This document shows positions 34,836-43,743 of a stretch of DNA of 64,000 nucleotides, piece after piece. The notes beneath the pieces are model-generated. The model was not told the origin of the DNA, made no database searches, and was given only the letters and a program-made list of their open reading frames with translations. This stretch comes from Lachnospiraceae bacterium. GTDB taxonomy: Bacteria; Bacillota; Clostridia; Lachnospirales; Lachnospiraceae. The translations under genes and the position numbers were made by a program. The DNA lies in assembly GCA_045597325.1 (NCBI GenBank), contig JAZLJJ010000011.1, forward strand, positions 14,426 to 78,425, written 5' to 3'. Positions within the stretch are counted from its first letter, which is position 1. The number at the start of each line of letters is the position of its first letter.

Positions 34836-35093
34836 ATGATTTCAAAAGACATGACAGTTAACATTCCCAATGGCCTTGGTGGGAGACCGGTTGCCTTACT
34901 GGTACAGGTGGCAAGTCGTTACGACAGCAGCGTTTATGTTCAGTGCGACAATAAGAAAGTTAATGCAAAGAGCATCATGGGTATGATGAGTCTTGCCCTT
35001 CCGACCGGTGCAGTGGTTACCGTTACGGTGAACGGAGCGGATGAAGAGGCTGCGATGAAGGATATTGAAGCATATCTGAGTGGGGAGCAGTAA
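34836..35093 (+). CDS. crh: HPr-family phosphocarrier paralog lacking His15 (Crh-like)
   Basis: 85 aa. NGLGGRPVA replaces the HPr motif GLHARPA (His15 becomes Gly). The Ser46 region KVNAKSIMGMMSL is retained. Confidence 0.85.
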   Translation: MISKDMTVNIPNGLGGRPVALLVQVASRYDSSVYVQCDNKKVNAKSIMGMMSLALPTGAVVTVTVNGADEEAAMKDIEAYLSGEQ

Positions 35094-35149
35094 AGAAGAC
35101 AGCACAAATTGAGTGCATAAGTAAGAAAACAGGCTGCATTGCAGCAATG

Positions 35150-35193
35150 AGAAGTCCTTCGGGTCACCTCCGGGTGATTCGGAGGGCTTTTTT
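35150..35193 (+). terminator. rho-independent terminator after crh
   Basis: CCTCCG-GGTGATT-CGGAGG inside a longer GC-rich hairpin, followed by CTTTTTT. Confidence 0.65.
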
Positions 35194-35370
35194 ATCTCAT
35201 AGGAAAGCTCGTCCTATGAGATAAAAAAACGCTCCGCGAGGATGCACACGTCTGTGCAGAGGAAAAATGTCGCTTCGCGACGCACAGGCGGCGCGAGCAT
35301 ATCGCAAGCGATATGCTTTGTTCTGTCATAGGAAAGTTCGTCCTATGAGATAAAAAAACATTCCGCGAGG
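35194..35370 (+). repeat. structured ~130-nt intergenic element, copy 4, plus a second partial unit (hairpin + A-run + CATTCCGCGAGG)
   Basis: A full unit is followed by TGTCATAGGAAAGTTCGTCCTATGAGATAAAAAAACATTCCGCGAGG. Confidence 0.95.
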
Positions 35371-35479
35371 AATAAAAGAACACCTTCAATAGAAGAATTT
35401 GGTCTTGTCAAATGAGCTATATTTGTGTTACATTGTTTTTGTTTCTTCAACACGTAGTGAAACGGAAGGGGAAAAGATA

Positions 35480-37693
35480 ATGAATCAAAAAACAGTAAAA
35501 AAATGGATGTGCTTACTCAGTGTGCTGTGTTGTCTGATGCTCGGTAACCGGACGACAGGGACGGCTTTGGCAGAGGCTGAAGTACCGGATACCGTAACAG
35601 CAGAGGTGGCAGCGAAAGAAACTACGGAAACAGCGAAAGAGACTACGGATGCGGAGCCGGTGGCAGCAGTGGATGAATCATTTGCAGAAACCACAGAGGC
35701 CACCAATATTGCAAGCGGTACCGGCTGGTATTTGGATCGTGCCGGATGCCTGCATCTTACAGGAAAAATAGAAGAAATTGGCTGGAAAGATTACAAATCG
35801 AATATTATAACAGTTATCGCTGAGACGGGTTCATCACTCGGACAGGATGGAAGAAAAGTGTTTATGGATTGTAATAATCTCGTATCTGCTGACTTAAGTA
35901 AGTTGGATACGTCGAATGTACTTGATATGTCCGATATGTTTAACGGATGTTATTCGTTAACAACATTGGATGTCAGTACATGGGATACGTCGCATGTGGC
36001 ACATTTCATTCGTATGTTTTACGACTGTACAGTATTAACGACATTGGATGTCAGTGAGTGGGATATGTCGGGCGCGATATTTATTGATGACATGTTTGGG
36101 GAGTGTCGTGCATTAACAACCTTGGATGTCAGTAAGTGGCGTACACCGCATTTATACAGCGCGACATATACGTTTTTTCGTTGTAGAAAATTAACGACCC
36201 TGGATGTCAGCAATTGGGATACATCGAACGTGACGGATATGAGCGGAATATTTGATGGTTGCGAGGCAGTGAAGGAATTGGATGTCAGCAAGTGGGATAC
36301 GTCAAACGTGACGAGAATGGGCAAAATGTTTATGTGCTGTTATTCCGTAACGGAATTGGACGTCAGCAAGTGGAATGTATCAAACGTGACGAGTATGCAG
36401 AACATGTTCAATGAGTGCTCGGCTTTATCGGAATTGGATGTCAGCAAGTGGAATGTATCAAACGTGACCAATATGAGCAACATGTTTAAGCGTTGCAGTT
36501 CGTTGACGGCACCGGCTGTCAGCAATTGGGACATGTCAAGCGTGACAGATATGGATTACATGTTTTCATATTGCAGTTCATTAACTACACTGGATCTCAG
36601 CGGGTGGGATATCTCGAAAGTGAAAAGACTGGATGACTTTGTTTGGGAGAGTAATTCGCTTCATACGATTATTTGGCCCAAACAGGTAAAGGATGATCTT
36701 AGGCTGAAATGGCTGGCAGAGGAATTGCTCGAGTATTGCCCTGTATGGTGTGATTCCAAAACGGGGAAGATGTATTCTGATGAGAAGGTAATGCAGAAAT
36801 TATCCGGTTCGGTGACACTTGTTGTCCATGGCATTGATATCCGGATAAGTAATGGTTGGGAGGGAGTTATCCTTAAGTGGACTCCGGTAGCAGGCAGCCC
36901 GGTAACGGTCTTTCGTAAGGAAGCCGATATTTATCGAAATTCATCCGACGATTTGAGTGGTCTGGATTACACTAGGTATAATGGCAAGTGGACGAAAATG
37001 GCAACCACGACGGAAGGGGTGTATTATGACAAAGAGGTAACAAACGCAAAAGGATATGATTATATTGTGTTGCGAAACAATGCGACAACGCCGCGGTCGA
37101 TACCTCTGAATATATGCCGTTATGTTCAGCCTCCGACGATAGAGTCAGTGACCAATGTGGCCGGCGGAGTGAAGGTGAGCTGGTCGTCTGAGAGCTATAG
37201 GCCGGACGGATTCTTCGTGTATCGCAAAGACACTCAGAACGGTACGTGGCACATGATTGGCTCTACCCAAAAGAATCTGACCTATACGGATACAACCGTG
37301 GAAAACGGAGTAGTATACTATTATGCCGTGAAAGAATTCTATAAAGAGACGAAAACGTACCGAAGCTACAGTGCTTCCAGTTCCGCAAAGAATACAGTTT
37401 ATGCGAAGAATGTATTTATTTCCGCGATTTCCAATCCGCGTCCCGGTGATTTCACGGTGGTTCATTCCGTAAACGACAAGGCAACCGGATACCAGATTGC
37501 ATACAGTACCAATTCCAATATGAGCGGCTCCAAGTACGTGACTCAGGCGGGAGGAAACTATACAACCATTAAGGCAACCGGACTGACAAAGGGCAAGACA
37601 TATTATGTCATGGTACGCCCGTATAAGACCGTCGCCGGTTACACCTTCTACGGTGCATGGAGTGCCAAGAAGGTGGTTACCGTTACGAAGTAA
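35480..37693 (+). CDS. secreted surface protein: DUF285/BspA-type leucine-rich repeats + FN3-like repeats
   Basis: Signal peptide MNQKTVKKWMCLLSVLCCLM...ALAEA. About 10 copies of a 25-aa repeat L..LDVS.WDTSNVT.M..MF..C (about 35900-36640). C-terminal modules such as GVKVSWS...G(Y/F).VYRKDT..GTW..IG....LTYTDTTVENGVVYYYAVKA are FN3-like. Confidence 0.8.
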   Translation: MNQKTVKKWMCLLSVLCCLMLGNRTTGTALAEAEVPDTVTAEVAAKETTETAKETTDAEPVAAVDESFAETTEATNIASGTGWYLDRAGCLHLTGKIEEIGWKDYKSNIITVIAETGSSLGQDGRKVFMDCNNLVSADLSKLDTSNVLDMSDMFNGCYSLTTLDVSTWDTSHVAHFIRMFYDCTVLTTLDVSEWDMSGAIFIDDMFGECRALTTLDVSKWRTPHLYSATYTFFRCRKLTTLDVSNWDTSNVTDMSGIFDGCEAVKELDVSKWDTSNVTRMGKMFMCCYSVTELDVSKWNVSNVTSMQNMFNECSALSELDVSKWNVSNVTNMSNMFKRCSSLTAPAVSNWDMSSVTDMDYMFSYCSSLTTLDLSGWDISKVKRLDDFVWESNSLHTIIWPKQVKDDLRLKWLAEELLEYCPVWCDSKTGKMYSDEKVMQKLSGSVTLVVHGIDIRISNGWEGVILKWTPVAGSPVTVFRKEADIYRNSSDDLSGLDYTRYNGKWTKMATTTEGVYYDKEVTNAKGYDYIVLRNNATTPRSIPLNICRYVQPPTIESVTNVAGGVKVSWSSESYRPDGFFVYRKDTQNGTWHMIGSTQKNLTYTDTTVENGVVYYYAVKEFYKETKTYRSYSASSSAKNTVYAKNVFISAISNPRPGDFTVVHSVNDKATGYQIAYSTNSNMSGSKYVTQAGGNYTTIKATGLTKGKTYYVMVRPYKTVAGYTFYGAWSAKKVVTVTK

Positions 37694-37793
37694 ACGCGGC
37701 GCCCGGAGTGCAGCGAAGCCGATTGCATTGACGAAATAAACAGCGTCCTGAGTGCAGCAAAAACGATTACATTGACGAAATAAATGCTGCATA
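37660..37793. repeat. tandem repeat, 44-46 bp x 3, re-iterating the last 11 codons plus the stop of the surface-protein gene
   Basis: Unit starts (GAGTGC) at 37660, 37706 and 37750. The units translate as WSAKKVVTVTK*, SAAKPIALTK* and SAAKTITLTK*. Confidence 0.9.
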
Positions 37794-37849
37794 CAGTGAA
37801 TTTTGCAACCGGAACAGAGCGAAATACAGTTATATTTTTGAGGAGGCAG

Positions 37850-38521
37850 ATGATGTTAACAATTGAAGAGTTCTATTGGGCAATGGGAATTATTATAGGG
37901 GTTACGGCATTGGTTTGTGCGGTGTATTGCGGTATTTATTTTATTTGGGGAAAGAAGCATTTCCGCCGTGCGTATCCGTCAAGAGTCTGCTGCATAGTGC
38001 TGATTTTGGCATTGGCAGCGTCGAGTTTATTTGGCATCGACCAAATGACCAAACGGGTAGAGTACAGAAAGAAGCACTACACCTCGGTCAATAATTCCAA
38101 ACACTATTGCCTTGGTGTGAGCGGTGAGAGCGAGGATGTATATAGCGAGGGAAATGATTGGCTGCAGAGAATGGAACAGGATAAAAATGCAGTTCAGGAA
38201 ATCACTTCCTTCGAGAGCGATTCGGTGCAAATGACGGCTTACATCTTAAAATCGAGAGAAACTTATCAGGCGAAGGTTTTCCTCAAGGTGGAACCTCTCG
38301 GTGAAACAGAGTATTTTGATAATTTCGGACTCGTATGGTTTGAAAACAAGGAAGAGATTGCCAATTCGGGAATCATTGGACCCCTGCCGCCGGAAGAGTC
38401 CCGTTTCCTTGTCAAAATAGACTGTTCGGAAGCGATTACCTCGCTTCATTTTGATATTGATTGCTATGATGAAACCGGCGCGAAAAAGCATGAAGCATTT
38501 GTACTTGATCTTTCAAAATGA
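37850..38521 (+). CDS. hypothetical membrane-anchored protein
   Basis: AGGAGG RBS, ATGATG start, 1-2 N-terminal TM helices, no recognisable domain. Confidence 0.55.
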   Translation: MMLTIEEFYWAMGIIIGVTALVCAVYCGIYFIWGKKHFRRAYPSRVCCIVLILALAASSLFGIDQMTKRVEYRKKHYTSVNNSKHYCLGVSGESEDVYSEGNDWLQRMEQDKNAVQEITSFESDSVQMTAYILKSRETYQAKVFLKVEPLGETEYFDNFGLVWFENKEEIANSGIIGPLPPEESRFLVKIDCSEAITSLHFDIDCYDETGAKKHEAFVLDLSK

Positions 38522-38593
38522 TTTTGTAGTCTTGCAAAGGTAGTCGGTGTGTGATGTTCTACTGTTGTGCGCATAAAGAAAAGGAGTGCCATC

Positions 38594-39289
38594 ATGAGAG
38601 TATCGGTATGTGATGATTTGATAGAGGCTATCGAGGACTTGAAAGAGAAACTGTCGCATTTCCAGGAAATTACGGCCATTGATACGTATTCGGATTTGGA
38701 TGTTTTTGCAAAGAGCATTGGGAAAATTGAATACGACATTTGTTTCATGGATATTGACTGGGGAAAAGAGAAAATGCTTGGAATTGATTTCGCCGAGCGG
38801 CTGAAGGGGTGTTCCATCATTTTCGTGACGGCGTATCCGATGGAATTTGCCGAGAAAATATTTGGTAAAGATTATACGCCGAGCGGCTTCCTGATTAAGC
38901 CGGCGAAGGAAGAACAGATTGCGATTCTGCTCGGGAAGGTTCTGCGGGAACGTCGGATGAAGATGAAAACCGTTTCGTTTTCCATCAATGGCAAATGCCG
39001 GGTGACGAAGTTTGAGGACATCGTTTTTCTGGAGGGAGTTCTGCACAAAACAAAAGTGCATCTCAGTGACCGGAAGGAACTGGTTGTAAATAAATCATTG
39101 TCGGAGCTGTCGGAGTCGATGCCGGAGTATTTTCTGAGGTGCCACAAAAGCTTTGTGGTCAATCCGTTGTACGTCGAGACTTTGAAAGCGGACAAGGTGA
39201 CGCTGAAGACGTCCGAGGCGATTTCCGTCAGTCGGGCGAGGCGGGCGGACACGAAGGCACAGTTTCTGGATTATTTGGCAAATCATTAA
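38594..39289 (+). CDS. LytTR-family response regulator
   Basis: Receiver MRVSVCDD...ICFMDIDW...FVTAY and a C-terminal LytTR domain ...IVFLEGVLHKTKVHL...FLRCHKSFVVN. AAGGAG RBS. Confidence 0.85.
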   Translation: MRVSVCDDLIEAIEDLKEKLSHFQEITAIDTYSDLDVFAKSIGKIEYDICFMDIDWGKEKMLGIDFAERLKGCSIIFVTAYPMEFAEKIFGKDYTPSGFLIKPAKEEQIAILLGKVLRERRMKMKTVSFSINGKCRVTKFEDIVFLEGVLHKTKVHLSDRKELVVNKSLSELSESMPEYFLRCHKSFVVNPLYVETLKADKVTLKTSEAISVSRARRADTKAQFLDYLANH

Positions 39290-39311
39290 CGGGATGTGAA
39301 GGGAGAATAGG

Positions 39312-40139
39312 ATGAAGAGGTACTGGTGGTTATTTGTGCTGTTTCCGATCAGCCAGTTTTTTCTGATAATCAATGCGTATCAGACAGTCGGGCATTTGGA
39401 CAGAAGGGGCATACTGGGGCTGATTCTGGCGCCGATTGCGGATGTGCTGGTGCTGTTCCTCATTTTGAGTTCGCAGCGTAAGGAGAAGGTGGAATACGAG
39501 CTTCAGAAGGTTCAGATGCTGCGGGAAGCGGAGGCACGTCGAAATGAAAATCTGGAACGCAGCCAGAAGGCGTTTCTGGAACTGAAAGAATCGCTGGCGT
39601 CGGAATTTGAACGGGTGAAAGAATCCATGAAGAATTCGGATGACAACGGTGAGAGCGACTGGAAACATTTTGAGGATGTCCTGGAATCCACGCGACATAC
39701 ATTTTATACGGAAAATGTCATTGCCAACGCGATTTTGTCGGAAAAACAGAAGCAGTGCAGGCAGGAACTTCAGACGGAGATTGAGATTTCCGCATCGCTG
39801 TCCCGGCATGTTTCCTTTGATCCGATGCAGTTGTGCAGCCTGTATGCAAATTTGATTGATAATGCGATGGAAGCAATTGCCGAGCTTGAGCCGGAGAAAC
39901 GGTTTATCCGGCTGGAGACCGGCTACAACGCCGGAAATATGTGGATTCGTGTCAGTAACCCGGCCGATGAGAGTCATGTCGTGAGAACGCGTCGGGAAGG
40001 ACACGGATACGGAAGGAATATTTTGGAATCGATTGCCAATCAGCACAACGGCGTGTACAAGGCGGAATACAAGAACGGAATATACGAAGCATCTGTGATG
40101 GTTGAAGCAGAGGAAACGGGGGCCACACGTGATATTTAA
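39312..40139 (+). CDS. GHKL ATPase-domain protein of the AgrC/LytTR-associated kinase type: 2 TM + coiled coil + ATPase, no recognisable phospho-acceptor H-box
   Basis: C-terminal YTENVIANAILSEKQ...LYANLIDNAMEA...EGHGYGRNILESI (N and G boxes). The position where relatives carry RHDxxNH reads FLELKESL. Confidence 0.7.
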   Translation: MKRYWWLFVLFPISQFFLIINAYQTVGHLDRRGILGLILAPIADVLVLFLILSSQRKEKVEYELQKVQMLREAEARRNENLERSQKAFLELKESLASEFERVKESMKNSDDNGESDWKHFEDVLESTRHTFYTENVIANAILSEKQKQCRQELQTEIEISASLSRHVSFDPMQLCSLYANLIDNAMEAIAELEPEKRFIRLETGYNAGNMWIRVSNPADESHVVRTRREGHGYGRNILESIANQHNGVYKAEYKNGIYEASVMVEAEETGATRDI

Positions 40140-40932
40140 CAAGGTTTTGCTGGTGAGCATGTGGGCGTACAATTTCGTATATGCCTATGGGTTGTGTGCG
40201 TTTGTTATGAAACGGCGGTTTGGAAAGGTTGCCAGTGTTTTTCTGTTTCTCGGACTCAGTTCGGTGATAATCGGGTTTCGCATCTGGTTTGTCATCGGAG
40301 GCGGACAGGATGCGGTGCCGGTGGGAAGCATGGTGACGATGTTGGGGTGCTTCTCTCTGCAGGTTGTTTTGTTTCGCGGAAAATGGTTCCGGCAGCTGAT
40401 GAATTATGCAATTGTATCGGTGTTTGCGATACTGGCGGAAATTCTCGCGTCGTTCTTTGCTTCGAGCATTACGGGAAGTGTGGAATCATTTAACTTTAAC
40501 GATCCCGGATTCCGGGTCGGCATGTTACTGTTCTTCCCGTCTTTGTCGGCGATGATATATCCGACGATTGTGCTCTTGCGAAAAGTGAACCGTTTATCGG
40601 TCGGCGAAGTGATCGGTGCGTATTCGTGGCTTGTGGTGACATTTCCGTTAAGCCAAATGTTCCTGATTAATCTCTACACCGGCGTCACGACGGTAGTGAA
40701 ACCGATTGGTTTGATTGGTGCACTGGTCGGAATTACATCCGATTGTCTGCTGATTTGGTTCCTCGATAAGGAGCACCAGAAATTCCGACTCCGGAAAGAG
40801 CTCGAAGAAGAAAAACAAATGCTGGAATTTGAGGAAATGACGTATCGGGACCTGATGTCGCAGCAGGAAGAAATCGCGCAGCTGCGGCACGATTACCGGA
40901 ACCAGATGATTGCACTGAAAGCGATAAAATGA
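40102..40932 (+). CDS. polytopic membrane protein ending in a histidine-kinase H-box (LRHDYRNQMIAL) with no ATPase domain
   Basis: About 6 TM helices. The last two TM helices plus the coiled coil are paralogous to the N-terminus of the preceding gene (WLVVTFPLSQMFLINLY vs WLFVLFPISQFFLIINAY). Start uncertain (TTG 40102, GTG 40129 or ATG 40159). Confidence 0.6.
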   Translation: MKQRKRGPHVIFNKVLLVSMWAYNFVYAYGLCAFVMKRRFGKVASVFLFLGLSSVIIGFRIWFVIGGGQDAVPVGSMVTMLGCFSLQVVLFRGKWFRQLMNYAIVSVFAILAEILASFFASSITGSVESFNFNDPGFRVGMLLFFPSLSAMIYPTIVLLRKVNRLSVGEVIGAYSWLVVTFPLSQMFLINLYTGVTTVVKPIGLIGALVGITSDCLLIWFLDKEHQKFRLRKELEEEKQMLEFEEMTYRDLMSQQEEIAQLRHDYRNQMIALKAIK

Positions 40933-41030
40933 ACGGGCACCGAAACCAGATGATGGCACTGAAAGCGATAAAATGAACGATTATCGAGACCAAATATTGG
41001 CATCGAAAAAGCAATAAAGTGAAATAAAAA
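40888..41030. repeat. tandem repeat, 44 bp x 3, re-iterating the H-box codons plus the stop codon
   Basis: ACCAGATGAT at 40901 and 40945, ACCAAATATT at 40989. The units translate as HDYRNQMIALKAIK*, GHRNQMMALKAIK* and DYRDQILASKKQ*. Confidence 0.9.
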
Positions 41031-41257
41031 ACCGAAAAAGTGACAAGCTATTTTGCAAAAACATCGACTTGTTGAGCATGAATAAAAGTGCTCGACAGAC
41101 CGGTGTTTTTTTTGTATGCTAATTCTGCCGGGAAATCCGCCGTTTCTGCATGTGAGGTTGAATGAAACATGGGAAAATGGGAAGATTAAGGGGAAGTATA
41201 TGGCCGGGTGAGGGCTGTATATGAGATGACAAAAACTAAAAAACGGAGGAATGAATT

Positions 41258-42417
41258 ATGAGAAGATTTATGTTGTTACTTTTGTCGGTTTTCTTGCTGG
41301 CAAGCGTATCTGCTTGTGGGAAGACGGATAAAAATGATACGCAGAGGCAAGATGACAAACAAAAGACCACTCAAATACCGACGGTGGCACCGACTGCAAC
41401 GCAAGTGCCGTCACCGATGCCTACAAAAGAAACAACTATTCCAACAAACCCGCCGACACCGGAACCAACGGATGGTGTGATTCTAAAACGGGGAAAATGT
41501 ATTCCGATGTGAAGCCATTGCAAGCAATATCCGGTCCGGTGACACTTATTTGTCATGGCATTTCTGTTCAAGTAGGAAATGGTTGGGAAGGAGTTACCAT
41601 TAAATGGACTCCGATACAGGGACAATCGGTAACGGTATATCGTAAAAGGATGTATCTTGAGCAAGACCCATCTGCCGATTGGAATGGTACGAGAAGTTAT
41701 GACCTCGACACAGAGTGGACGAAACTGGCGACTACGACGGCAGGAGGGTATTATGATAAATCGGTTACAAACGGAGACGGATATGAGTATCGTGCGGTAC
41801 TAAACAAGGCGAAAACACCGCAGCGGACGTATTCGAGTATATGCCGTTACGTTCAAGCACCGACAATCCAGTCGGTGACCAATGTGGCCGGCGGAGTGAA
41901 GGTGAGTTGGTCGGCAGTGGATGGTGCAAACGGATACATAGTATATCGCAAAGACACTCAGGCAGGAACATGGCATATGATTGGTTCCACACAGAAGAAT
42001 CTGACCTATACGGATACAACCGTGGAGAACGGAGTGGTATATTATTATGCCATCAAGGCATTCTTTTATGAGATGGGAAAATCCAGAAGTTACAGTGCTT
42101 CCAGTTCTGCTAAAAACACGGTTTATGTGAAGAACGTATTCATTTCGTCCATTGCAAATCCGCGTCCCGGTGATTTCACGGTGGTTCATTCCGTCAATGA
42201 CAAAGCAACCGGATACCAGATTGCATACAGTACCAATTCCGATATGAGCGGTTCCAAGTACGTAACTCAGGCAGGTGGAAGTTATACGACTATTAAGGCA
42301 ACCGGACTGACAAAGGGCAAGACATATTACGTCATGGTACGCCCGTATAAGATCGTCGCCGGTTATACCTTCTACGGTGCATGGAGCGCCAAGAAAACGA
42401 TTACGTTGACGAAGTAG
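41258..42417 (+). pseudogene. lipoprotein signal/PT-linker ORF (41258..41512) out of frame with an FN3-like ORF (41497..42417): either a frameshifted paralog of the C-terminus of 35480..37693 or a -1 frameshift-dependent gene
   Basis: Lipobox LLASVSAC and a Pro/Thr linker in frame A. Frame B is homologous to residues ~WCDSKTGKMYSD...VTVTK of the upstream surface protein. The two frames overlap by 16 nt, and the overlap contains G_GGA_AAA. Confidence 0.6.
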
Positions 42418-42445
42418 ATAAGTAAATTCATGGCAATACAAACTA

Positions 42446-42476
42446 AGACCTGTCGCTCTCCGCGGCAGGTCTTTTT
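42446..42476 (+). terminator. rho-independent terminator
   Basis: AGACCTG-TCGCTCTCCGCGG-CAGGTCT followed by T5. Confidence 0.8.
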
Positions 42477-42625
42477 ATCTCATAGGAAAGTTCGTCCTAT
42501 GAGATAAAAAACGCTCCGCGAGGATGCACACGCCTGTGCAGAGGAAAAATGTCGCTTCGCGACGCACAGGCGGCGCGAGCATATCGCAAGCGATATGCTT
42601 TGTTCTGACATGAGATATAGGACAA
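42477..42625 (+). repeat. structured ~130-nt intergenic element, copy 5 (plus a decayed second hairpin)
   Basis: A full unit 42477-42606, then TGACATGAGATATAGGACAAAACG. Confidence 0.95.
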
Positions 42626-42741
42626 AACGTGATGATAAAAACCGCCTCAAACCCCTGATATATAAGGACTTGAAGCGGTTTAATCTTTCATGTGAAATCA
42701 GATGGAAGCCGGACAAAACCTGTTGATGTCGCTCCCCTCGC

Positions 42742-43743
42742 TTACATGCTTGCGATGCCTTCCGAAATACCCAGAATAACGATTCCGACAATAACGGAAA
42801 TGACGCAGGCGTACTGGGAGGCGCGCAGCCGTTCTTTGACGAAAATGCGCGACAGAATAACCGAAACGATACAATACGATGCAACCATGGGCGCTGCAAT
42901 CACCGGCTTTCGAGCCATGGCGAAAACGTAGAACACCTGACCGAATTCCTCACAGCAGGCAGCGATGCCTTTGGATACTTCCGAACGACGGAACGGGTTG
43001 TAAGGCTTGTGTGAGCGAATCAGAATATACAGCCAGCAGCCGAGGCCGACCAGAAGGAAGGTCAGTCCGTACAAAATGATGACATCCATTTCGCCGAGGC
43101 CGAGTCCCTTTTCTTCATCGAGAATAATTCCGTCCGCGGCGGTTCCGATAGTATCAAAGAGACAGTACAAAAGCGGGAACAAAAGCGCCAGCGTGCCGAA
43201 ACGATAGCGGCGGTCGGAATTGTCGGTATCTGCACTTTGTGCGGAAGCGGAAGAGGCGTCGGCGGACTTCCGGCTCAGCTTATTTTCAACGACGGCAAGA
43301 GCGATGACACCGATGACAATCAGAATCGTGCCGATGATGTCAAGTGTGGAAAATGCGTCCGTAAAATCGGTGAATCGACCGGTTGCCAGAAAGAAGACAA
43401 GCATGCAGATGGCAGACAGCGCACCGGATGCATTTTGAATCGGCGACACGATGGACAGCTCCAGATAACGAAGCCCCGCATATCCGATAATCATGGAAAT
43501 GATGTAGCAGAGCGATGCCGGCGCATAGGACAGGGCATTTTTCATAAGCCCCGAAAAGGTCATTTCCGTTTCCGACATGTGAAACAGGAGAAGAACGACG
43601 GAGGTGGCGCCCATGATGAGGCCGACCCAGACGGCAATTTTCAGATGCGAATAGCGGTCCTCGTCATCCGTTCCTTTTTTGTAAAATAAGTCCGCAAAGC
43701 CCCAGCCGAGCAGGCAAATGACAGAAAATACGAACCACGACAT
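42742..43743 (-). CDS. DMT/EamA-family transporter
   Basis: About 10 TM helices and 333 aa from ATG 43743, which has an AAGGGAGGA RBS (the ORF is open up to 43902). Confidence 0.75.
   Translation of the reverse strand: MSWFVFSVICLLGWGFADLFYKKGTDDEDRYSHLKIAVWVGLIMGATSVVLLLFHMSETEMTFSGLMKNALSYAPASLCYIISMIIGYAGLRYLELSIVSPIQNASGALSAICMLVFFLATGRFTDFTDAFSTLDIIGTILIVIGVIALAVVENKLSRKSADASSASAQSADTDNSDRRYRFGTLALLFPLLYCLFDTIGTAADGIILDEEKGLGLGEMDVIILYGLTFLLVGLGCWLYILIRSHKPYNPFRRSEVSKGIAACCEEFGQVFYVFAMARKPVIAAPMVASYCIVSVILSRIFVKERLRASQYACVISVIVGIVILGISEGIASM

Follow-up and report, generated by a model that had tools for sequence, protein, structure and literature searches.

A 44-bp tandem array behind a Lachnospiraceae surface-protein gene is very probably a decaying minisatellite born across the gene's stop codon

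Immediately behind a surface-protein gene (here gene1) in a Lachnospiraceae genome lie 134 bp that are very probably a small, decaying minisatellite (VNTR), produced by tandem duplication across the gene1 stop codon. The gene lies in the window, the 64,000-nucleotide stretch of contig JAZLJJ010000011.1 that was analysed. Its open frame occupies 35399..37693 (+), of which database protein P0001 (737 aa) sets the start at 35480, and its product matches Pfam DUF285 (7.5e-62) and LRR_5 (6e-13). The 3' terminus encodes ...YGAWSAKKVVTVTK, that is, WSAKKVVTVTK, with TAA as the stop codon. Gene1 belongs to a large, rearrangement-prone family, of which about 20 paralogs in the genome terminate WSAxKxhThTK*; the genes around it include those for HprK, ROK, MurB, WhiA, a LytTR two-component system, EamA and dehydrogenases. 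The features discussed below are the following.

35480..37693, + strand: gene1, surface protein with a signal peptide, DUF285/BspA-type leucine-rich repeats and C-terminal Fn3-like domains
37655..37698, + strand: U0 of array A, the in-frame translated unit, its register taken from U1 and U2; stop codon 37691-37693
37699..37742, + strand: U1, untranslated unit, SAAKPIALTK* at 37707-37739
37743..37786, + strand: U2, untranslated unit, SAAKTITLTK* at 37751-37783; adjoins the original 3' flank
37850..38521, + strand: membrane-protein gene 3' of gene1, with the RBS GAGGAGG at 37840-37846
38567-39289: LytTR regulator gene, part of the operon 3' of array A
40889..41022, + strand: array B, units B0-B2, on the stop of a truncated AgrC-like kinase gene (40102..40932)
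41497..42417, + strand: the paralog (P), a truncated relative of the Fn3-like part of gene1, terminating WSAKKTITLTK*; single unit at 42379-42422

The first-pass annotation had described the end of gene1 as followed by two units reading as further C-termini, and TRF, translation and shuffle tests bear this out. TRF reports a period of 44 (2.0 copies, 85% matches, score 130), and the units lie head to tail and in register, each with its own stop codon. Identities are 28/46 for U0 and U1, 30/48 for U0 and U2, and 36/44 for U1 and U2. When local alignment scores are set against 5000 mononucleotide shuffles of one unit per pair, the similarity to U0 is significant both for U1 (score 19, p=0.007) and for U2 (p=0.023), and U1 and U2 are true homologs of the gene1 3' end that carry "fossil" coding information. 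The two stand in different frames relative to gene1 (+1 for U1, 0 for U2), and their differences from each other, 2 synonymous, 2 non-synonymous and 2 non-coding, give no sign of coding constraint. A candidate fourth unit at 37787-37830 was rejected, its similarity not being significant (p=0.14-0.18). The array unit is a local and not a dispersed element: blastn-short searches of the whole genome with the units returned the array itself and the end of the paralog, and nothing else. By eye, with no statistic attached, the 3' flank of U2, GCTGCATACAG, looks like that of an orphan 3'-end fragment found in the sister species (G041).

The sequence of events that would best account for the array is simple. 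A stop-spanning 44-bp segment of gene1 would have undergone two tandem duplications, probably through slippage of replication or through unequal exchange involving short direct repeats. Because the duplicated segment includes the stop, the first copy would still terminate the protein and the extra copies would go untranslated; and since a period not divisible by three is harmless in untranslated DNA, the copies could persist and drift. U1 and U2 would then be molecular fossils of an ancestral C-terminus, ...AKKTITLTK*, from which the translated copy later departed by conservative changes (T to V, I to V and L to V), while the paralog, 4.7 kb downstream, would have retained the ancestral codons. 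Array copy number still shifts through exchange between units, and we ascribe no function to the array.

The paralog bears on this reconstruction most directly. Gene1 and the paralog align collinearly (36745-37693 with 41472-42417), and the proposal that the last unit is the C-terminus of the paralog holds for the final 26 nt of U2, 24 of which match the paralog end (local score 37, equalled by none of 5000 shuffles); U1 also resembles that end (p=0.0004), and the sole non-local genome match of U2 falls exactly on the paralog stop (E=0.014). Over the whole unit the proposal does not hold, as the paralog end matches U2 at 32/46 positions and U0 at 34/45, and so is not nearer to U2 than to the translated unit, an outcome that the first-pass annotation had named as refuting. 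The paralog end is in fact a mosaic, with the first ~17 nt like U0 and the last ~26 nt like U2. The nearest homologs terminate KKTIT[VLI]TK*, a third-lineage homolog ends KKTITVTK* as a single unit followed by what by eye is an apparent terminator hairpin, and in the sister species U0 reads KKTVTVTK* and the paralog end KKTVTLTK*. From these endings and the family-wide WSAxKxhThTK* it would follow that U2 and the paralog simply retain ancestral codons, which would explain their resemblance, and that U0 is the derived copy. The array does hold coding-like information, as had been suggested, and its link to the paralog is very probably one of shared ancestry.

The suggestion of gene conversion or recombination likewise stands in part, in that units do recombine with one another (see below). 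Recent conversion between gene1 and the paralog was rejected: dS is 0.3-0.8 across the full 950 bp of the alignment, so that no recent conversion is visible at any point along it. High identity in the last 250 nt reflects low non-synonymous divergence there (dN 0.02-0.03 over the last 300 nt). A separate possibility is that recombination between the paralogs or between units made the resemblance, either by collapse, through U0-U2 exchange, of an array that the paralog once carried or by a short gene-conversion tract in either direction. The mosaic paralog end, the unit exchange seen directly in a four-unit allele, and metagenome contigs that hint at a two-unit array in another family copy all speak for it. 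However, only 2 nt (AAA vs AAG, ATT vs GTT) bring the paralog of the window nearer to U2 than that of the sister species, and both states are also ancestral for the family; dS is still 0.31-0.37 within the last 200 nt, with no recent conversion tract, and metagenome contigs do not separate paralogs from alleles. We regard this origin of the resemblance as unlikely. It may be noted that a hybrid, U0/U2-like paralog end is also what collapse of a former array would be expected to leave.

Beyond the window, both the same array and a longer allele of it occur. The sister species has the same three units, with U2 identical and U1 differing once (at 37709); a search for the locus in 40 relatives' genomes gave no match beyond the genome's own. 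Among the homologs recovered by two protein searches, usable 3' flank came only with the sister species and a single Logan contig. The three-unit allele is present in the window, in G041 and in contigs of metagenome runs X2, X3 and X5, whereas contigs of runs X7 and X9 (both from one study) carry a four-unit allele, so that copy number varies between strains. In the four-unit allele the joint runs from 37769 back 44 to 37726, and the extra unit starts as the 5' part of U2 and passes, inside a stretch of 15 shared bases, into a U1-type end. Such a hybrid is the product that would be expected from unequal exchange between units, and recombination between array units does occur, as this allele in X7 and X9 attests. 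Runs X3, X5, X7 and X8 contain contigs in which a paralog-type 3' flank comes after a diverged U0-U1 pair, and therefore another family copy may carry a two-unit array. A variant flank, GAAATAACGAATCAARTATCAATAC, had no matches in species-representative genomes. A search for the unit pattern in JGI metagenome contigs gave 30 matches, none of them homologous to the locus.

The same data weigh on the idea, also raised in the first-pass annotation, that the units are a store of silent C-terminal cassettes able to replace the end of the expressed gene. Such exchange would vary the surface protein. Gene1 does encode a surface protein of a family prone to rearrangement, U1 and U2 retain stop codons and family-like peptides, and stop-spanning repeats occur in 3 of ~17 family members. 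Yet with units in direct orientation and abutting, exchange can merely delete or add units; they are limited to 10 codons, within a terminal strand that is conserved; their synonymous and non-synonymous differences are equal in number; and the sister species has the same three. An in-frame end replaced by U1 or U2 was found in no contig at the locus across nine DNA metagenome runs (X1-X9), although contigs drop rare variants. No recombinase was found among the genes neighbouring the array and no inverted copy of the units within 35000-43000, by which a shufflon or invertible C-terminal switch was also rejected, and 41 further arrays of the same type lie at other genes, housekeeping-type and unrelated ones among them. 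On these points the cassette proposal is not supported, and we give it almost no credence. Silent-cassette variation (pilE/pilS, vlsE) and shufflon switching share with the present locus the placing of extra, partial surface-gene copies next to an expressed gene; the locus differs from them in its tiny abutting units, its lack of recombinase and inverted repeats, the absence of any switched allele among the contigs seen, and its stability across species.

Might the untranslated units nonetheless be used, as an extension of the protein or as a regulatory site? Stop-codon readthrough would add 29 residues ending in a second family-type C-terminus, as frame 0 is open from the TAA at 37691 to the U2 TAA at 37781 (encoding TRRPECSEADCIDEINSVLSAAKTITLTK*) because 46+44=90, a multiple of 3, and the spacing of the stops is equal in the sister species. 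An open stretch of 29 codons is, however, expected by chance about 1 time in 4, the gene1 stop is TAA, the strongest bacterial stop codon, a stimulatory structure is absent (the array region folds no more stably than shuffles, z=0.08), and the frame relation is broken in the four-unit allele; readthrough is accordingly a most improbable account. A regulatory role, as candidate LytTR operators or as the leader of the downstream membrane-protein/LytTR operon, has in its favour that array A lies 5' of that operon and array B 5' of the next surface-protein gene, that both have a period of 44, about four helical turns, and that LytTR regulators such as AgrA, ComE and PlnC bind direct repeats. LytTR sites are pairs of ~9-bp direct repeats at 12-13 bp spacing (a period of ~21-22) located 5' of a promoter. 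Against such a role, TRF reports only the period of 44 and no 21-22-bp sub-period, the units of A and B have no significant motif in common (best shared stretch 10/11 nt, p=0.10), a promoter-like site is absent from 37500-38000, the units are plainly coding-derived, and like arrays occur at more than 40 unrelated genes. We think regulation very unlikely to explain the repeats.

The scan of 37500-38000 was also free of terminator-like sites, with none between gene1 and the membrane-protein gene, and Rfam gave no match at E<=1 over 37300-38100. The membrane protein matched no Pfam family. RNA across the array was not seen in the one metatranscriptome searched, whose sole contig spans 38199-38392, inside the membrane-protein gene.

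The neighbourhood contains a second array of the same period. Array B, ~3 kb downstream of array A, has 2.6 copies by TRF, and its three units here are four, more diverged, in G041. That both neighbouring arrays share the period of 44 is a point against the minisatellite reading. A wider census of this genome combined TRF with our own ORF-based gene calls and counted arrays with a period of at least 20 and not divisible by 3, of which there are 146: 82 intergenic, 41 over a stop codon, 9 over a start only and 14 "inside" a gene call. The stop-spanning arrays that were printed repeat the final 2-38 nt of a gene together with its stop, in 2-5 copies, with units unrelated between loci, and the genes involved include housekeeping-type and unrelated ones. 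Tandem repeats with a period of at least 20 make up 8-11% of intergenic DNA. Non-3n arrays of such period number 64-79 per Mb in this genome and the sister species, 25 per Mb in a congener, and 0 in 200 kb of another family.

A mechanism specific to 3' ends was rejected, as repeats are about equally dense whether a spacer is convergent (1.04 per kb), divergent (0.87 per kb) or tandem (0.72 per kb). Stop-spanning arrays nevertheless number 37-41 against 15.8 expected from uniform placement given the number of intergenic arrays, a ~2.3x excess, and tolerance may not explain everything; the gene calls are, however, home-made, and the neutrality of intergenic DNA is not uniform. Two other paralogs of the gene1 family have stop-spanning repeats of their own (periods 70 and 16/32), and 3 of ~17 complete family paralog ends compare with ~2.4% of all genes (binomial estimate ~0.01), a weak enrichment. 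This excess and the three family members could point to a process in the lineage with a preference for duplicating the final few dozen bases of genes, a suggestion we hold to be improbable. If it were true, pseudo-ends would be raw material for new surface-protein C-termini, reached through single unit deletions or frameshifts, and the arrays would be more than passive debris.

Read as a decaying minisatellite, the array has familiar counterparts. Bacterial VNTR loci of the kind used in MLVA likewise have noncoding, head-to-tail units of tens of bases that diverge with age and vary in copy number between strains (here 3 vs 4) through unit exchange; here, by contrast, the first unit is translated, the later ones read as pseudo-C-termini with stops, and such loci are unusually many in this genome and its sister species. 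The MIRUs of Mycobacterium tuberculosis are tandem units of 40-100 bp, intergenic in operons; small ORFs within them overlap the flanking genes at their stop and start codons. They resemble array A in being tandem, of similar length and at gene ends, with stops in register with the upstream gene, and differ in that MIRUs are one dispersed family, whereas the unit here differs from locus to locus, each arising from the end of the gene at that place; a MIRU-like family was rejected, given the comparison of A with B and the unrelated units of the printed arrays. Microhomology-mediated tandem duplications, known from fission yeast (bioRxiv 10.1101/2020.03.03.972455), are similarly short and local, arise and revert easily, and survive where the frame is unbroken. 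Border microhomology is not demonstrable in the old, diverged units of array A, and organism and repair background differ.

It is important to emphasize that array A is ordinary for this genome, and that the repeat-rich genome itself is the more notable observation. What look like "alternative C-termini" downstream of a gene can be no more than fossils of a stop-spanning tandem duplication, and such fossils preserve an older state of the protein's end. Short tandem repeats occupy about a tenth of the intergenic DNA, dozens of genes have duplicated ends, and repeat density is similar in the sister species. Annotation is affected through spurious small ORFs and mis-set gene ends, and short-read assemblies break at the repeat sites; the same loci supply ready VNTR markers with which strains of an uncultured gut lineage can be typed. 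The question raised is which trait of replication or repair makes this lineage prone to short duplications.

The surface-protein gene of the window, gene 1, is followed by two untranslated copies of its own 3' end, which together with the translated unit form a short array (array A). The features lie as follows; all peptide ends quoted run to a stop codon.

35399/35480..37693, + strand: gene 1, a surface protein of 737-764 aa with signal peptide, DUF285/BspA-type leucine-rich repeats (LRR) and Fn3-like C-terminal domains
37655-37698: U0, the translated end in register, holding the end of gene 1
37699-37742: U1, 44 bp, directly 3' of the gene 1 unit, reads SAAKPIALTK
37743-37786: U2, 44 bp, after U1, reads SAAKTITLTK
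41497..42417: truncated paralog of the last 950 bp of gene 1, ends WSAKKTITLTK

The gene 1 protein matches the Pfam families DUF285 (7.5e-62) and LRR_5 (6e-13) and terminates in YGAWSAKKVVTVTK, with a TAA stop at 37691-37693. For the U1-U2 array, TRF gave a period of 44, 85% matches and a score of 130; pairwise, U1 and U2 match at 36/44 positions, U0 and U1 at 28/46, and U0 and U2 at 30/48. Significance was assessed with 5000 mononucleotide shuffles of one unit, which gave p=0.007 and p=0.023 for the similarity of U1 and U2, respectively, to U0, and p=0.0004 for U1 against the paralog end, while no shuffle reached the observed score of U2 against that end (0/5000). The tandem alternative C-termini reported behind gene 1 in the first-pass annotation are real, with translations, TRF and shuffle tests in agreement, and the units are homologous. 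The account of array A that we consider quite probable is that it would be a decaying VNTR (a minisatellite with a variable number of units), begun by tandem duplication across the gene 1 stop codon, in which U1 and U2 would be fossils of an ancestral protein end.

U2 had also been equated with the C-terminus of the paralog. This holds for its last 26 nt (24/26 identical), but over the whole unit the paralog end is no nearer to U2 (32/46) than to U0 (34/45), an outcome that the first-pass annotation had itself named as speaking against its reading; it is a mosaic, U0-like in the first ~17 nt and U2-like in the last ~26 nt. Of the roughly 20 copies of the C-terminal domain in the genome, nearly all have the end WSAxKxhThTK. 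A third-lineage homolog (P0003, Logan contig L043) ends KKTITVTK in a single unit, followed by an apparent terminator hairpin (judged by eye), and the corresponding ends in the sister species G041 are KKTVTVTK for U0 and KKTVTLTK for the paralog type. These family ends suggest that KKTIT[VLI]TK is the ancestral protein end, which U2 and the window's paralog would have kept while the translated copy shifted to KKVVTVTK by conservative steps; U2 would then resemble the paralog because the downstream units are fossils of that end. Gene conversion between gene 1 and the paralog had been proposed for the likeness, but a recent tract was not seen: dS stays at 0.3-0.8 from end to end of the alignment, the last 200 nt giving 0.31-0.37, and the high identity of the two 3' parts is due to a dN of 0.02-0.03.

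A search of 40 further genomes from the genus and the order gave no match to the array A locus. G041 (MAG Lachnospiraceae SGB_5976) has it with the same three units, U2 being identical and U1 carrying one difference (37709), and the array thus persists across species. The gene 1 body is strongly diverged between the two (dS about 0.6). Positions 37675-38640 of the window, a ~965-bp block containing the end of U0, U1, U2, a membrane-protein gene and the start of a LytTR gene, differ by only about 1% from their G041 counterpart (contig piece L022, G041:C33), with ~10% difference in the flanks on each side. The block appears to be a ~1-kb segment recently imported by recombination, with its left edge at the U0/U1 border. 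In L022 (9037-9125 and 10040-10140) an orphan, decayed Fn3 3'-end fragment of ~90 nt closely precedes a third LRR gene, in which only the last ~85 nt of the Fn3 body remain; its window equivalent has lost the LRR part instead. The gene 1 family is highly rearrangement-prone.

All three units are present, gap-free, in contigs from the DNA metagenome runs X2, X3 and X5. A four-unit allele occurs in runs X7 and X9, gut metagenomes from a single study, where the contig reaches 37769 and jumps back to 37726; its extra unit begins as the 5' part of U2 and changes to a U1-type end somewhere in 15 bases that the two share. Copy number has thus changed via a hybrid unit, the product expected from unequal exchange between U1 and U2. 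We do not think that this allele is an assembly loop, since U1 and U2 have no 31-mer in common. The copies of the array would have originated by slippage or unequal exchange, and we infer that they are neutral. A further set of contigs has a diverged U0-U1 pair running into a paralog-type flank, or a single U1-like end beside some other flank; because there are roughly 20 paralogs per genome, they are taken for paralogs and not for alleles. No replaced in-frame end at the locus was found among the metagenome contigs, which may miss rare variants.

Searches for a function gave no Rfam family match at E<=1 at the array A region, an RNA fold with stability like that of shuffles (z=0.08), no promoter-like or terminator-like sites in 37500-38000, and no copies of the units in inverted orientation across 35000-43000. 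The neighboring genes encode HprK, a ROK kinase, MurB, WhiA, a LytTR regulator with kinase fragments, an EamA transporter and dehydrogenases; no recombinase is among them. Beyond the TAA of gene 1, frame 0 runs on for 29 codons without a stop, up to the TAA of U2 (37694-37783, TRRPECSEADCIDEINSVLSAAKTITLTK), the U0-to-U1 and U1-to-U2 offsets totaling 90 nt; this is probably chance, at about 1 in 4, and the four-unit allele breaks the open frame. The metatranscriptome run X13 yielded a 194-nt contig with 2 differences at 38199-38392, within the membrane-protein gene (no Pfam match), which is therefore probably expressed in vivo.

A second array in the window also covers a stop codon.

40889-41022: array B, units B0-B2, period 44, over the stop of a truncated AgrC-like kinase gene (40102..40932)

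Its units show no sequence relation to those of array A (p=0.10), and it has 3 units in the window versus 4, more diverged, in G041. The sister species also has the kinase N-terminal gene a second time, in tandem, and this copy ends ALKAMRDR and bears no array (for both observations, L022 7600-7790 and 6760-6830). A reading of the arrays as LytTR operators was rejected, as the period of 44 contains no 21-22-bp sub-repeat and the two arrays share no motif. Two further gene 1 family members have stop-spanning repeats: one (C79:25100-25270, L003) with one extra copy at period 70, KKSITITK then KKCITITK, also found in G041 (L012), and one (C48:2590-2680) with period 16/32 and about five 16-nt units over the stop.

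A census of the entire 2.3-Mb genome, with TRF for the repeats and a simple codon-usage caller for the genes (1678 called, 86% coding), found 660 non-redundant tandem arrays, 146 of them with a period of at least 20 and not divisible by 3. Among these 146, 82 are intergenic, 41 span a stop codon (4 of them also a start), 9 span a start codon only, and 14 lie "inside" genes, probably through mis-set starts. The arrays inspected have a recurrent anatomy of 2-5 copies of the gene's last 2-38 nt plus the stop. Arrays with such periods are unable to persist within genes, and they gather at gene ends because duplicating a segment with the stop codon in it does no damage. Repeats with a period of at least 20 occupy 8-11% of intergenic DNA, and their densities in convergent, divergent and tandem spacers (1.04, 0.87 and 0.72 per kb) are alike, so the repeat habit belongs to noncoding DNA generally and not to 3' ends. 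Uniform placement in simulation predicts ~16 stop-spanning per 82 intergenic arrays; the 37-41 observed, about 2.3 times as many, are to be taken with caution, since the gene calls are home-made and constraint on noncoding DNA is probably lowest in the zone right after the stop codon.

Density of arrays (period at least 20, not a multiple of 3)
Own genome: 64 per Mb (whole genome)
Sister species G041: 79 per Mb (29 arrays in 365 kb)
Congener G001: 25 per Mb (5 arrays in 200 kb)
G025, other family of the order: 0 per Mb (200 kb)

From these densities, 64 and 79 versus 25 and 0 per Mb in small samples, it is concluded that the repeat-rich state is a trait of the small lineage comprising this genome and G041. 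The array A locus could be used as a strain marker; more notable than the array itself is the unusually repeat-rich noncoding DNA of the lineage.
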